This document shows, one piece after another, positions 1 through 36,818 of a stretch of 64,000 nucleotides of DNA (positions are counted from its first letter, which is position 1; each line of letters begins with the position of its first letter). The notes under the pieces are model-generated. The model worked only from the letters and a program-made list of their open reading frames with translations. It was not told where the DNA came from and ran no database searches. The DNA lies in assembly GCA_943357895.1 (NCBI GenBank), contig CALRGO010000001.1, forward strand, positions 140,042 to 204,041, written 5' to 3'. The DNA comes from Parcubacteria group bacterium (GTDB lineage: Bacteria > Patescibacteriota > Minisyncoccia > UBA6257 > UBA11618). Position numbers and translations under genes: made by a program.

Positions 1-1449
1 TCTTGGCTGCCCACGGGTGACCGGTAATTAAGGGTATGTTCGTGCTCTTGGAACATCTCTATGTCCGTTTTCCCGTCCGTGTGCATTGTCTGGAGCATGA
101 GCATATTTTTACGGAGAGGGAGATATGTCGTTGCATAGAGAGAGAATCCAACGCCGATTATAATGAAGAAAAACGCAATTTTACTATACGTATTTCCATT
201 GCTCGTCATTACGGCTTTTACTTCGCTTCTTTCTTGAAAATCTTCGGCGTATGCGTCAAGGAAGCCGATAAATAAGAAAAAGATGAGGTAGAGGGGGAGT
301 GTCTCAAAGAGCACAAGACCGTTTATGAGATATATGACAGGAATCGCCATAAAAAGGGGCCATAAAGCATGATCCTTTCGTTTTTTTAAGCGTATATAGA
401 GGACGACGAATATCGCTATGTAGGCGACGAGTAAGGGGATGCCGCCGGTTGTTAGGTATTCAAGTGGTGCGTTATGAGCTCTATCAAACCATGATTCAAC
501 GGTGTAGTGATTTGGGTTGTAGTATGCATCGAATATAAAAGGAAAATTTTCCGCTCCCCAGCCGGTAATGGGTCGTTCGATTGCCCCTGCAATAGCGGAT
601 TCCCATGTCCAAAGGCGCGGCTGCATGTCTTCCCATGCATTCCCTTTTACCGTAAGGACGAGGAAGGTAATGCCGCAAATAGCTAAAAAGCTTGCGAATC
701 CAGCACCTGTGTTAATTTTCCATCCGCGTTTTTTCTGGAAAATCCATAAAATACACATAAAAGTGAGCCCTATGCCAACTCCTACGAATGCCCCGCGGCT
801 GTGTGTGGTAAAAAAAAGCGTTATTTGAAAAAAAGCGGCTAGAAGAAGCGCTGTTTTCTTATTCCCCCGTCTATTATATGCAAGCACAAGGCTTAATAAG
901 CCGGTGATTATCATATAAATGCCTAAATAATCAGGATTTCCGAGTGTTCCTGATTTTGCCCCGCCCATAGGGTTTACAATCCACGAAGGCCAGCTAAGCA
1001 TTTGCCCGATAGCATATAAGCCAATAAGCGTTGCTATTGTTGTTTGTGCGGTTATTAGGTTTTGCCAGCCCTCTTTACCTTCAAAGAGTAGTAGAATTAG
1101 GAAAAAGAAGAGGAAATAATGGATCATTTGCCACGCACCCTCGCCCCGCTCGAAGTTAGACCAAAAAGCAAACGAGGGGATTTGAGCGGTGAACGCCGAG
1201 AGAGTAAAGAGTGCTGTAAATATGCTGATTGCTATAAAAATAGGCTTTTTTACTACAGTTTTTACTGTAGATAAGGGGATTTCTTTGTACGCAAGCGCCC
1301 CTGCTATGGCAATGAGGGCAAGTTCTGTAAAAAGCCTAAAAAAGAAGATTTTCCCTGCAATAAAGGGAAAAAAGAGCGATCTGCTTACAATTAAGGGCGC
1401 GGCAAGGCTTATATAGGTACAAATACGAGCTATTTTAGTGAAGGTCATA
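1..1449 (-). CDS. O-antigen ligase (Wzy_C)-like polytopic membrane protein. The C-terminus runs off the window, and there is an apparent frameshift at the 5' end.
   Basis: I translated the reverse strand by hand. It gives a continuous hydrophobic ORF homologous to the N-terminal half of the 5095-7266 protein (..LFFPFIAGKIFFFRLFTELALIAIAGALAYKE..FWSNFERGEGAWQMIHYF..). An ATG at 1449-1447 fits the paralog's start (MTF..), but that frame stops after 4 codons. The long ORF continues in the +1 frame, and its first ATG is at 1127. Confidence 0.5.
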
Positions 1450-1517
1450 GATGTGAAACATAGTATCATCCGCCTCGTTATATATACTAGTCCTAACTAG
1501 ATGAGCTATTAGTTTCA

Positions 1518-1547
1518 TTGACTTTTTAGCGTATTATGCGTTAAAAT
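1518..1547 (+). promoter_or_regulatory. Sigma70-like promoter (TTGACT, 17 nt spacer, TAAAAT) driving the leader of the S-layer-like gene.
   Basis: TTGACT lies at 1518-1523, followed by a 17 nt spacer and TAAAAT at 1542-1547. The implied transcription start is near 1555. Confidence 0.4.
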
Positions 1548-1554
1548 CTCAAGC

Positions 1555-34093: not shown

Positions 34094-34113
34094 AAGAATG
34101 CGGTTATTGTGGG

Positions 34114-35523
34114 TTATTTTCCACTTTTAGTCAATTCGAGAAACGCCGGTTCTCGCGTTGCCCATAAGGCGCCCACGTAGCAGACTACTGCGATACAGAT
34201 AACGAGAAGTACGGGCATATGGGCACGTGTCGCCACATATGCCACTACCCCCATAACGGCACAGGCGGCAAAGGCTTTGCCGAGGCCACGGGGGATGGTG
34301 AATCCCGAAAGCAGGTTGATCTTCCGCCATATAAAAAGCCCCGTGGCAGTTTGGGTAATGAACGTCGCGAGTGCCGCGCCGTTAATCCCCAAAAACGGTA
34401 TAAGGATGAAGTTTAAAGCGATATTCATCGAGAGTCCTATTGAGGCATACGCAAGGAAATGTTTTTGGCTGTTGTGCGCTATTAAGGCGTTGTTGATAAT
34501 AGCCGTTGCAAAAGCAATCGGCACGGTGAAAAGCAGTATGATGTATGACGCTGTTGCGGGTAGATATTCCGCACCATAAAAGAGCTCGATAAGCCGCGGG
34601 CCAGTTATCACACCGCCTACCGTCACGGGTAGTGCAATCATGAGCGCACCGTGCATAGTTTTTTCGAAGAATGCCTTGAATGCTAGCCGGTCATGCGCGA
34701 GGCGCGCCATGACAGGAAAGGTGGCGGATGCGATTAATGTCGGCAAGACATAGAGCGTGAAGATTATTTTTTGCGTCGCCGAGTAGTAGCCAATTTCGGC
34801 GGCCGTGCGCATCCACCCAAGCATTACGATATCGGTGTTAAGCATCAGGCTGCCTAAAAGTCCGACAACCGCTATCGGTAAGGCATCCTTCATGAGCTGT
34901 CGTACGAGCGGCCGGCGGAATGTCGATAGCATGCCCGGTAAATAATCGCGGATAAGGAAAAAAGCGTAGAGGGTGCCTATACCGCTGCCTATTGCATAGG
35001 CAATGTTTAGGGCTTCGGCAGACGGGTTACGTAAGAGTAGTGCTATACCGATTACGAGGATCGCCGCCTGCGTTAAAATATTTATGAATGCCTCGTTCCG
35101 CATCATTTCGTGCGCCTTGTTAACGGTCGTAGCTATAATGCGCATACTGTCGAAGAAGACGAGGAACGCGAGCGATATCATAAGTGACTGCGATAAGGGG
35201 AGTGCGCTTACCGCGGGGACAGCAAGGATAATGATAAAGCTAGCGACGAAAAGGAGAGCGAGCTTCGCGAAGAGGAATGTTGAGAGGTGTTCGGCACGGC
35301 GACTATGGTCGCGTATAAGTTCGCGCGTGACGATAGCCGAAAGCCCCAAGTCGGTGGCTATGGTAAAAAGCACCGCCCATGACAAGAGGTAGGATGATAC
35401 GCCCCACTCGCCTGCGCCAAGGAGCCGTGCGGAATAAAAAATAAGGACAATACGTAATGAGCGGCCAATGATTTCGGAGGCGGTGAGCCAGACGGTATTT
35501 TTGACGACGCGGGAGGATGTCAT
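34114..35523 (-). CDS. Second Wzx-type flippase.
   Basis: 469 aa polytopic membrane protein. N-terminus ..NTVWLTASEIIGRSLRIVLIFYSARLLG.. . Confidence 0.75.
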   Translation of the reverse strand: MTSSRVVKNTVWLTASEIIGRSLRIVLIFYSARLLGAGEWGVSSYLLSWAVLFTIATDLGLSAIVTRELIRDHSRRAEHLSTFLFAKLALLFVASFIIILAVPAVSALPLSQSLMISLAFLVFFDSMRIIATTVNKAHEMMRNEAFINILTQAAILVIGIALLLRNPSAEALNIAYAIGSGIGTLYAFFLIRDYLPGMLSTFRRPLVRQLMKDALPIAVVGLLGSLMLNTDIVMLGWMRTAAEIGYYSATQKIIFTLYVLPTLIASATFPVMARLAHDRLAFKAFFEKTMHGALMIALPVTVGGVITGPRLIELFYGAEYLPATASYIILLFTVPIAFATAIINNALIAHNSQKHFLAYASIGLSMNIALNFILIPFLGINGAALATFITQTATGLFIWRKINLLSGFTIPRGLGKAFAACAVMGVVAYVATRAHMPVLLVICIAVVCYVGALWATREPAFLELTKSGK

Positions 35524-36818
35524 GCAGGGCGGACGAAAAATAGCTTTACCGTTTTAAGGATGATAGAAAAATCCAAAAGAAATGATCGGTTCTTTAGGTA
35601 GTAGAGGTCGTATTCCAGTTTTTTATATGCGTCTTCCACCGAACTACCGTATTTATATTGCAGTTGTGCCCAGCCGGCGATACCGGGGCGTACGAGGTGG
35701 CGTAGCTCGTAATAGGGGATTTTCTCTTTAAGCTCCATAACAAATGCGGGGCGTTCTGGCCGCGGGCCGACAAACGAAGCGTCGCCCTTAAGAATATTCC
35801 AAAGCTGGGGTAGCTCGTCCACGTGCGTGCGCTCGATTATGCGACCAACGCGCGTAAAGCGAGGATCGTTTTCGGTTTTCCATACGGCCCCTATTCCTGC
35901 TTCGGCAGATCCGTCAGCGGCGTTCGCGATCATGCTGCGAAATTTATATAAGGTAAATTCTTTCCCAAATTCACCGGTGCGCACTTGCTTAAATATCACG
36001 GGTCCACGGGACGTGAGTTTTATGAGGATGGCGATGAGCGCCATCACGGGGAGGGTGATTATAAGGATCACGAGCGCCATTAAGATTTCGACCGGTGTGC
36101 GGAAAAAGTCGTAGATTGTATGGCGGTTTGCAAGGCTTTTTAAAAACCACGCTTCTTCGAGTTCTGCTATCGGCAGTTTGCCGAACACGAGTTCGTAAAA
36201 AGTAGTGGTGTCGGTAATTTCTACACCCGCTAAGGCGTAGCGGTAGAGTGTCGTCACGTGCGTGCCGTTGCCTGCCTGCGGTGGCACAACGATAAGGTCT
36301 GCGCTTTCTACGTCATGTACTACGCGGTAGCCGAGTTGGGGATTTTCCGTTATTTCGCGGGCAATTTCTTCCGTTACTTTTGATTGTCTAAAAAACGCCA
36401 CGGAAGTGACGGGTAGGTGTTGACCTAAGGCGTTGTTATAGAAGGTACGCCATAGGTACATGAAGACGAACGCAAGGAGGAGGAAGATAAAGAGGTTCGT
36501 TTTCGGCGTGATGCCGTAGATGGTGATGAAGTAGAAGAAGGCGACGGAAATCGTGGCGGCAACGAACGTCGCCGCACCGAGGTTTTTAAGGAACGTCGCC
36601 GTATTTTTCATCCGGCCGATTTCGTAGAGGCCGTTGATATAAAACACGAGTATCCAGACGGCAAAGAGTATCGAAAATGGCTGGAAGTGGCTTTGGGTTT
36701 CGGCGCCTTCCCATGTCACTCCGTACCGTATAAAGAGGGTGACAAAAAGCGCAACGTATAAGGTTGCCACATCGCCCACCACGAGGAGTATTTGTTTAAG
36801 CCGCAGCGCAGGGTTCAT
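35520..36818 (-). CDS. Undecaprenyl-phosphate sugar-phosphate transferase (WbaP/WcaJ-type priming enzyme, bacterial sugar transferase family).
   Basis: C-terminal catalytic domain ..RGPVIFKQVRTGEFGKEFTLYKFRSM..DELPQLWNILKGDASFVGPRPERP.. . 4 nt overlap with the upstream flippase. Confidence 0.9.
   Translation of the reverse strand: MNPALRLKQILLVVGDVATLYVALFVTLFIRYGVTWEGAETQSHFQPFSILFAVWILVFYINGLYEIGRMKNTATFLKNLGAATFVAATISVAFFYFITIYGITPKTNLFIFLLLAFVFMYLWRTFYNNALGQHLPVTSVAFFRQSKVTEEIAREITENPQLGYRVVHDVESADLIVVPPQAGNGTHVTTLYRYALAGVEITDTTTFYELVFGKLPIAELEEAWFLKSLANRHTIYDFFRTPVEILMALVILIITLPVMALIAILIKLTSRGPVIFKQVRTGEFGKEFTLYKFRSMIANAADGSAEAGIGAVWKTENDPRFTRVGRIIERTHVDELPQLWNILKGDASFVGPRPERPAFVMELKEKIPYYELRHLVRPGIAGWAQLQYKYGSSVEDAYKKLEYDLYYLKNRSFLLDFSIILKTVKLFFVRPA

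Follow-up and report, generated by a model that had tools for sequence, protein, structure and literature searches.

Bacteria of the candidate phyla radiation (CPR), or Patescibacteria, represent a large part of bacterial diversity and spend their lives attached to other cells, and their surface molecules are almost unknown. In the genome of one of them, a Parcubacteria group bacterium, the gene for a secreted surface protein is followed on the same strand by a gene for a membrane enzyme that combines Wzy_C and TPR domains, and then by a long run of glycan genes. The 64,000-nucleotide stretch that contains them (contig CALRGO010000001.1, positions 140,042 to 204,041; hereafter the window) raises the question of whether these genes work together in glycosylation and, if they do, on what acceptor. 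An initial annotation had described them as one integrated surface-protein O-glycosylation system. Comparison across relatives did not bear out the single unit. What is conserved is the surface protein together with the Wzy_C/TPR enzyme; the neighboring 30 kb island varies and is lineage-specific. We regard the island as an add-on because the glycan genes beside the conserved pair differ, or are absent, among relatives.

A surface-protein family and its Wzy_C/TPR neighbor

The surface protein gene (1776–4982, + strand) encodes 1068 residues comprising a signal peptide, a PG_binding_1 domain at residues 47–90 (27.3 bits in the Pfam scan, against a cut-off of 23) and six homologous β-sandwich modules. 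Serine and threonine make up 28% of the protein, compared with 10.8% in 21 other window proteins, while Lys, Arg, Asp and Glu together account for 10%, compared with 23% in the other proteins; the pI is 6.4. These values agree with its first description as a secreted, peptidoglycan-binding, Ser/Thr-rich protein. The label of repeat protein is also right at the domain level, because the six segments, each of ~150 residues, are mutually homologous by profile–profile comparison (HHalign, up to 97% probability, E 2e-11). Neither N-x-S/T nor the Bacteroidetes motif D(S/T)(A/I/L/V/M/T) is enriched in the protein over shuffles. An AlphaFold2 model computed from a 23-sequence alignment (pLDDT 81.5) consists of a three-helix PG-binding domain followed by an all-β string. 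A sequence search of the PDB with the protein returned no match, and a fold search retrieved generic Ig-domain strings only, with TM-scores of 0.1–0.2, and no S-layer match. Strings of Ig-like domains can form an S-layer, as in Deinococcus radiodurans HPI (PMC10120038). The surface protein is likewise a β-sandwich string, for which no sequence match or specific fold match was found.

Homologs of the surface protein are widespread, and their names and record titles support a Parcubacteria-type origin of the window. A search of a word-indexed database gave 262 matches of 37–86% identity and 1060–1160 residues, from sources whose names include Jorgensen-, Wolfe-, Pace- and Paceibacterota, and an exhaustive profile search gave 2,492 clusters (50% identity) at E ≤ 1e-30. 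The family is conserved along its full length, including a C-terminal ...N(V/L)SYE tail, and is carried by at least 559 GTDB species representatives, which points to a near-universal envelope component of Paceibacteria. Several traits are of the S-layer type: the protein is secreted, predicted to be wall-anchored, low in charge and multi-domain, and it is encoded by a stand-alone gene with its own leader and tandem terminator. In this Paceibacteria bacterium it is probably the main envelope protein anchored to peptidoglycan and, as judged from its sequence, a candidate S-layer or envelope protein and a candidate glycan acceptor. Apparent S-layer-like envelopes have been seen in Parcubacteria by cryo-electron microscopy, in a study that draws no link to this protein (bioRxiv 10.1101/2022.04.20.488981). 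In some Paceibacteria, genes for proteins with peptidoglycan-binding domains rank with the most highly expressed (PMC10936435). We considered identifying the surface protein with the highly expressed proteins of that study and dropped the idea, as the sole gene checked is 2079 nt long and not obviously of the same family.

The order of genes around the pair is conserved over considerable distances. ClpB, a small open reading frame (ORF), a Wzy_C gene on the − strand, the surface protein gene and the Wzy_C/TPR gene follow one another in relatives whose Wzy_C/TPR proteins are 67%, 47% and 44% identical to that of the window. The genes after the pair differ among the three, being CgeB-like transferases with a SIS isomerase in one, GT4/methyltransferase fusions with WbqC in another, and GT4 genes with glycerophosphotransferases in the remaining one. 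Beside surface-protein homologs of 49% and 43% identity the Wzy_C/TPR gene again comes directly next, in one case followed by an ABC2_membrane/Wzt_C exporter cluster. After a homolog of 41% identity come GT4 genes and no Wzy_C, and after one of 39% identity (LiPW_15) neither. To count paired loci we used our own hidden Markov models over 78 species-representative loci, 65 of which have enough downstream sequence to be informative. In 45 of these 65 (69%), a same-strand Wzy_C homolog is found no more than 3.5 kb downstream; in the 33 loci of the closer family the distance is usually 4–620 bp. Even more distantly, two Wzy_C/TPR homologs of 25–26% identity directly follow members of the β-module family (hmmsearch E 1e-119 and 2e-83). 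In this distant subfamily the β-module body is kept in both proteins; the N-terminal domain of one (L089, 4144–7872) is not PG_binding_1 and the other (L090, 1–2988) is cut at its N-terminus. In both loci Wzy_C/TPR genes come next, sometimes two of them, along with a separate small TPR protein, and L089 also has a PMT-family gene.

The glycan genes do not share this conservation. Scored with a panel of GT2, GT4, CgeB-like, epimerase, Wzx and similar families, recognizable glycan genes are adjacent in a minority of loci, and some loci have none within 10 kb. Wzy_C/TPR orthologs of 44–72% identity sit beside unrelated sets, such as GT4 genes with methyltransferases, Glyphos_transf, or asparagine synthase. 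Synteny, proposed in the initial annotation as a check on the whole system, thus upholds the surface protein with its Wzy_C gene and leaves out the island; and where an island in relatives lacking the surface protein had been anticipated as the damaging outcome, the reverse was found, the surface protein being the more widespread of the two. At the level of sequence comparison, the conserved gene order strongly supports the view that the surface protein and the Wzy_C/TPR gene are linked in function. Many public records of metagenome-assembled genomes with this locus (L009, L011, L013, L014 and others) are titled ‘uncultured Candidatus Saccharibacteria bacterium’, while their closest relatives are labeled Parcubacteria or Paceibacterota; the titles look like placeholder or mislabeled taxonomy.

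The Wzy_C/TPR enzyme and its possible acceptor

The Wzy_C/TPR gene (5095–7266, + strand) encodes a 723-residue membrane enzyme with a WaaL/PglL-like transmembrane (TM) domain, a 13th TM helix and a TPR domain, a candidate O-oligosaccharyltransferase (O-OTase) or ligase. Its start was set at ATG 5095 rather than TTG 5065 because the latter falls within the T-run of the surface-protein terminator, and the resulting product is identical to database protein P0001. The protein matches Pfam Wzy_C (PF04932) at E 1e-20, with 74.3 bits against a cut-off of 31.7, and Pfam TPR repeats at approximately residues 580–700. In an AlphaFold2 model (pLDDT 91.3) helical repeats span residues 464–718 and resemble TPRs of the OGT/SPY type in a fold search, while the TM domain resembles WaaL 7tpg (Foldseek E 2e-5, TMt 0.58). 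Four hydrophobic segments separate the large catalytic loop from the TPR tail of ~280 residues. Because four TM segments intervene, topology parity, along with homology, would place the tail on the same, extracytoplasmic side as the loop. Residues R98, R159, N166, T214, R215, R276, R287, D334, H337 and N338 are invariant in 39 Wzy_C/TPR sequences, and the profile of these sequences matches WaaL 7tpg at 1.1e-13 and chain 9rmk, labeled ‘Oligosaccharyltransferase’, at 1.5e-11. R215, R287 and H337 align with Arg and His residues of WaaL 7tpg, and H337 with H349 of 9rmk. The equivalents, R215/R288/H338 in E. coli WaaL and R224/R298/H349 in Neisseria PglL, are functionally important (PMC3643930).

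A second Wzy_C membrane protein, without a TPR domain, is encoded on the other side of the surface protein gene (3–1469, − strand). Its Pfam Wzy_C match (E 2.5e-17, 63.5 bits against the same cut-off) confirms, with that of the Wzy_C/TPR enzyme, the earlier report of two flanking Wzy_C proteins of which one has a TPR tail. The window edge cuts its C-terminus; in the 253 kb source contig the protein has 619 residues. It is a paralog of the Wzy_C/TPR enzyme (HHalign against the TPR-type family, E 1e-88, 22% identity), its profile matches WaaL 7tpg at 4.6e-13, and it has an extra TM helix of its own and a non-TPR tail. It may serve as an additional transferase that acts on a different acceptor or site. 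In many relatives this paralog is split into adjacent ORFs for a membrane domain of ~420–460 residues and a tail of ~190–260 residues (L004 3907–5752, L007 15634–17416, L012, L013, L037, L060, L061, L064 and others). There the split paralog lies downstream of the TPR-type gene, and in the lineage of the window the paralog lies upstream of the surface protein gene.

Whether the Wzy_C/TPR enzyme is the dedicated O-OTase of the adjacent surface protein is, in our assessment, an evenly balanced proposition. The argument for it is that O-OTase genes typically adjoin their targets in the same orientation, as pglL genes do with those of pilin targets in 21 of 31 cases (PMC3643930), and that the WsfB layout also joins Wzy_C with TPR. 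WsfB and PglL have a C-terminal TPR domain; for WsaB the TPR protein, WsaA, is separate and adjacent (PMC2943079). The initial annotation had taken this architecture as that of an O-OTase rather than a lipid ligase. The precedents sustain the first half of that statement; the second half is not supported, as WaaL and 9rmk are matched about equally.

Several observations weigh against this assignment. There is no direct evidence of glycosylation for any protein. Sequence and fold do not discriminate between protein-directed and lipid- or glycan-directed Wzy_C enzymes, WaaL being slightly ahead of the OTase chain here, and WaaL and PglL are reported to be inseparable by sequence (PMC3643930). 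A single-sequence PDB search had pointed to an OTase (9rmk at 4.4e-7, ahead of WaaL), but this match was lost when the TM domain alone was used; because of this loss, and because the profile scores are alike, we use the ranking of 9rmk and WaaL neither way. A literature search found no publication on 9rmk. PglL_A (PF15864), a motif conserved in PglL and not in WaaL (PMC3643930), is unmatched by either window Wzy_C protein in the Pfam scan at E ≤ 0.01, and neither protein matches the NCBIfam models for ligases, OTases or polymerases. TPR domains occur also in polysaccharide export scaffolds, so the tail is no proof of a protein substrate. The surface protein and Wzy_C/TPR genes need not be co-transcribed, because a strong terminator lies between them. 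Approximately 31% of informative loci, LiPW_15 among them, have no adjacent Wzy_C gene; in the complete Paceibacteria chromosomes OY970382.1, OY970358.1 and OY970354.1, too, the surface protein genes are without one. Ser plus Thr content is the same family-wide in members with and without an adjacent Wzy_C gene (26.3% and 26.5%, respectively), so the Ser/Thr richness that had been read as a hint of glycosylation is no sign of it. S-layer genes can, moreover, adjoin wall-polymer genes for the purpose of anchoring, as in the csaAB-sap-eag arrangement of Bacillus anthracis.

Part of this evidence favors an acceptor other than protein. The alternative that survives best, though we consider it somewhat doubtful, is that the Wzy_C proteins are ligases to a membrane glycolipid or a wall-linked polymer, akin to WaaL or to TacL, the lipoteichoic-acid ligase of Streptococcus pneumoniae, and that the surface protein is unglycosylated. 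With the sequence data this reading agrees as well as the O-OTase reading does. Adjacency would then mean that polymer and protein build the same envelope layer, or that the polymer helps to anchor the protein. The profiles, whose match to WaaL 7tpg is no weaker than that to the OTase chain, the WaaL-like fold and the unmatched PglL_A motif all agree with such a ligase, as does the presence of TPR domains in polysaccharide scaffolds, indicated by a title cited in PMC2943079. A glycan-promiscuous ligase would likewise stay conserved beside variable glycan genes, and members of the distant subfamily without PG_binding_1 would need another anchor. What such a ligase explains less well is that same-strand pairing with one protein family persists over deep divergence, often without nearby glycan genes; pairing of this kind is seen for O-OTases and their targets and is atypical of lipid ligases. 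In addition, no LCP-family or teichoic-acid machinery was found among the island ORFs scanned.

It is quite unlikely that one or both Wzy_C proteins are repeat-unit polymerases of a Wzx/Wzy capsule or exopolysaccharide system with the surface protein as an unrelated neighbor. Pfam Wzy_C covers polymerases too; the island supplies a priming transferase along with two Wzx flippases, contains a low-molecular-weight phosphotyrosine phosphatase, as in some capsule systems, and encodes no other polytopic candidate for a polymerase. Wzy polymerases, however, co-vary with the repeat unit and sit inside the variable cluster, whereas both paralogs are kept (42–72% identity) beside unrelated glycan gene sets, beside sets of the ABC-transporter type, for which a polymerase is not needed, or beside none. 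Conservation of the pair next to changing glycan genes thus argues against a polymerase and fits a glycan-promiscuous ligase or O-OTase; nor was a chain-length regulator or bacterial tyrosine kinase (BY-kinase) found among the window ORFs scanned. We give equally little credence to a general O-glycosylation enzyme in the style of Neisseria or Tannerella, with many substrates, of which the surface protein would be the most abundant or, if it is not a substrate, with other secreted low-complexity proteins as the real targets: the window does encode further secreted Ser/Ala/Pro-rich low-complexity proteins (39399–42215, and seven at 47244–55248), regions of the kind that PglL-type enzymes modify (PMC3643930), and the pair is absent from 31% of loci, but the pairing is specific to the surface-protein family and the TPR domain suggests a defined partner.

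Should the enzyme be the O-OTase of the surface protein, the pathway could run as follows. Cytoplasmic enzymes of the island would make GDP-linked 6-deoxy, C-methyl or branched sugars and heptose-like sugars. The Bac_transf enzyme would prime undecaprenyl phosphate, on which GT2 and CgeB-like transferases and methyltransferases would build an oligosaccharide, and a Wzx flippase would carry this lipid-linked product across the membrane to its outer face. There, as the surface protein emerges from the Sec channel, the Wzy_C domain would use its Arg/Arg/His residues to attach the glycan en bloc to Ser, Thr or Tyr residues of the protein, while the extracytoplasmic TPR domain grips this substrate. 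The glycoprotein would then anchor on peptidoglycan through its N-terminal PG_binding_1 domain. In this scheme the data show which genes and domains are present, the conserved catalytic-type residues, the predicted topology, the conserved pairing and the variability of the island, whereas we infer the protein acceptor, O-linked transfer en bloc, the nature of the glycan and the S-layer status. A transferase tolerant of different glycans would, we propose, allow lineages to exchange the island. The comparison of loci suggests that these bacteria cover a conserved protein shell with sugars that vary.

Transcription signals and the glycan island

The surface protein gene has transcription signals of its own. 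A promoter-like site (1518–1547, + strand; TTGACT-18-TAAAAT, 10 of 12 matches to consensus, a consensus match only) lies ahead of its leader, and TTGACTT and the −10 region are conserved in relatives. The conserved leader covers ~230 nt within 1518–1775 and is also found upstream of the gene in loci L001–L079. Its structured core (1570–1662, + strand) comprises a hairpin P1 with an invariant GUGAGG loop (GGUUCAG-UGUGAGGC-CUGAACC, 1574–1595), a variable hairpin, and a terminator-like hairpin with a U-run (1640–1662). A covariance model built on 29 instances matched 48 sources, 19 of them outside the seed, in 1.57 Mb of fetched loci; every match lies upstream of a surface protein gene and on its strand, and there were none elsewhere in those loci. 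On an alignment not fitted to the helices under test, P1 and the terminator hairpin are paired in 88% of cells, compared with 19–39% for slid partners; both partners have changed in 10 of 12 pairs, and none of 500 shuffles attained such values. Rfam 15 contains no family matching this RNA.

The loop sequence GUGAGG(CU) is complementary to (AG)CCUC(G) in the 5′ arm of the terminator hairpin and, because of this complementarity, the leader may act as an attenuator in which loop-to-arm pairing could serve as the antiterminator. This long-range helix, the choice of RNAalifold, is 96% paired and shows no covariation; we keep it as a possible alternative pairing only. Downstream of the surface protein gene, two tandem GC-rich hairpins followed by a T-run form an intrinsic terminator (4993–5066, + strand; −42.1 kcal/mol, z −4.1, 0 of 200 shuffles as stable), indicating a separate, strongly terminated surface-protein transcript. 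In several relatives, a small gene of 188–231 residues with a weak HTH_DeoR match lies directly upstream of the leader (L004 5793–6359, L006 8768–9463, L007 9182–9757); it may be a regulator and is absent from that position in the window. A PaaX_M-like gene at 38149–38811 was considered as its window counterpart and proved unrelated.

The island runs from 7294 to 36818, where the ORF listing and the Pfam and NCBIfam scans give ~30 glycan-related genes over ~30 kb. Its G+C content is somewhat lower, at 0.44–0.48 against ~0.50–0.55. The scans confirmed the priming transferase, two Wzx flippases, GT2 and CgeB-type glycosyltransferases (two of each) and nucleotide-sugar enzymes that had been listed for it. 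The genes are described here in order, on the + strand unless marked −. Gmd, a GDP-mannose 4,6-dehydratase (7294–8307; TIGR01472, 510.8 bits against an equivalog cut-off of 415), is followed by a DegT-family pyridoxal phosphate (PLP) enzyme whose best match, an RfbH-type 3-dehydrase, is below cut-off (8304–9467), a sugar C-methyltransferase with Methyltransf_13 and Methyltransf_14 domains (9495–10775) and a GDP-L-fucose-synthase-like (Fcl-like) epimerase/reductase (10762–11709, −; NF047922, 415 bits, short of its cut-off of 500). Next come a Glyco_trans_1_2 (CgeB-like) glycosyltransferase identified with Pfam (11735–12772), an S-adenosylmethionine (SAM) methyltransferase with weak Pfam matches (12780–13610), a 319-residue protein with no family match in Pfam or NCBIfam (13607–14566), an RmlC-like 3,5-epimerase or ketoisomerase of cupin fold (14550–15056), a second DegT-family PLP enzyme, again with an RfbH-type 3-dehydrase as best match (15056–16225), and a second Glyco_trans_1_2 glycosyltransferase (16231–17334).

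The remaining assignments come from domain scans. The middle of the island encodes a NUDIX hydrolase (17399–17983, −), an NAD-dependent sugar epimerase/dehydratase (18102–19046), an RfaE-domain-II-like nucleotidyltransferase (19043–19627, −), a B12-binding radical SAM enzyme (19649–21190), another NUDIX hydrolase (21245–21820), a class I/II aminotransferase (21851–23047), a thiamine-diphosphate (ThDP) enzyme of acetolactate-synthase type, below equivalog cut-offs (23073–24917), an HddA-like GHMP sugar kinase (24925–25923), a GT2 glycosyltransferase (25931–26896), a ManC/HddC-like sugar-1-phosphate nucleotidyltransferase (26893–27591), a SAM methyltransferase (27588–28313) and the low-molecular-weight phosphotyrosine phosphatase family protein (28318–28749, −), which has no partner BY-kinase or Wzz in the window. 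Then follow a second GT2 glycosyltransferase (29178–30065), a second HddA-like GHMP sugar kinase (30073–31059), a GmhB-like HAD-IIIA phosphatase (31062–31514), an RfaE-II/TagD-like nucleotidyltransferase (31487–31933), a Wzx-type flippase of the Polysacc_synt family (31943–33202, −), an NAD-dependent sugar epimerase (33209–34093, −), a second Wzx-type flippase (34114–35523, −) and the priming polyprenyl-phosphate glycosyl-1-phosphate transferase (35520–36818, −; Bac_transf E 3e-63, TIGR03025 324 bits against 295.6).

The GDP-heptose pathway proposed for the island is present in part. The two HddA-like kinases and the GmhB-, HddC- and RfaE-II-like enzymes form a heptose-type set, all members falling under equivalog cut-offs, and tblastn found no GmhA/SIS isomerase in the window, which leaves the GmhA-HddA-GmhB-HddC set incomplete; a SIS gene is present in the island of one relative. 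The segments 8304–10775 and 19649–24917 combine a C-methyltransferase, two RfbH/ColD-like PLP enzymes, the B12-radical-SAM enzyme, the ThDP enzyme and the class I aminotransferase. This combination hints at unusual branched-chain or C-methylated deoxy sugars, and the ThDP enzyme recalls YerE of yersiniose synthesis. CPR bacteria are not known to make lipopolysaccharide (LPS) and, as first reported for this locus, no LPS genes (lpx, waa) were found among the scanned window ORFs of at least 100 residues.

Beyond the island, the window encodes two groups of possible surface proteins. Seven consecutive genes on the + strand (47244–55248) encode signal-peptide proteins, several of them very proline-rich with PPPP and PxP runs, and an eighth (55270–56895, +) encodes a 541-residue protein whose N-terminus is acidic and which has a membrane anchor in place of a signal peptide. 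All eight lack a Pfam match at E ≤ 1e-4 and are possibly further envelope or host-contact proteins. The gene at 39399–42215 (+) encodes a 938-residue protein with two lamin-tail domains and a Ser/Ala/Lys/Thr low-complexity linker. This protein is possibly another envelope component or a substrate for glycosylation; in LiPW_15 a lamin-tail-domain protein of 1213 residues (L006 2861–6502) is encoded ~3.5 kb from the surface protein gene. The remaining window genes have housekeeping roles and encode GAPDH, transketolase, ribosomal proteins, RpoA, MurA and MreB.

Relation to known glycosylation systems

The closest parallels are the slg loci of Paenibacillus alvei and Geobacillus stearothermophilus (WsfB/WsaB, SpaA/SgsE), which share with the window a surface-layer gene with the Wzy_C/TPR layout, a Bac_transf-type priming enzyme, nucleotide-sugar genes and a lower G+C content in the glycan genes (PMC2943079). 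Export in the slg loci is of the ABC2/Wzt type, shared by one relative of the window locus, whereas the window itself has Wzx flippases. Unlike in the slg loci, the surface protein belongs to an unrelated family with PG_binding_1 and six novel β modules and without an SLH domain, a conserved enzyme/protein pair stands beside a varying island, and the lineage is CPR. PglL, PilO and TfpO resemble the Wzy_C/TPR enzyme in the Arg/Arg/His residues, in a relaxed glycan specificity that we infer for it, and in co-oriented adjacency to a presumed target. The Wzy_C/TPR enzyme differs in not matching PglL_A and in its presumed target, a wall-bound multi-domain protein of ~108 kDa instead of a pilin, in a monoderm-type CPR bacterium. 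WaaL 7tpg is the best solved-structure match by profile and by fold and has the same loop residues; unlike WaaL, the Wzy_C/TPR enzyme has the additional TM helix, the TPR domain and a pairing with a protein gene, and the window has no lipid A-core genes. Full-text literature searches turned up no account of glycosylated S-layers or of a working O-antigen ligase in CPR bacteria, in keeping with the initial annotation, which knew of no described equivalent in a Parcubacteria-like lineage. The locus departs from the known systems in four respects: the new surface-protein family without SLH, the Wzx export, the conserved enzyme/target pair beside a swappable island, and the CPR lineage.

We tentatively extend the proposal, as a possibility on the unlikely side, to Paceibacteria as a whole: a wall-bound outer-layer protein of ~1100 residues would be decorated by a glycan-promiscuous Wzy_C/TPR transferase with sugars from a hypervariable, horizontally exchanged island, giving serotype-like variation, with the leader attenuator controlling production of the protein. 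The conserved leader RNA is a separate regulatory element that can be tested on its own terms. Provided that the protein does carry glycans, the locus would be the first glycoprotein system of S-layer type to be reported from CPR. It would provide a glycan-tolerant O-OTase from a new lineage, with possible use in glycoengineering, and a handle on host recognition and phage resistance, as well as on antibody or lectin staining and enrichment of uncultured cells. A serotype-like scaffold system of this kind could decide how these episymbionts attach to their hosts and escape phages.

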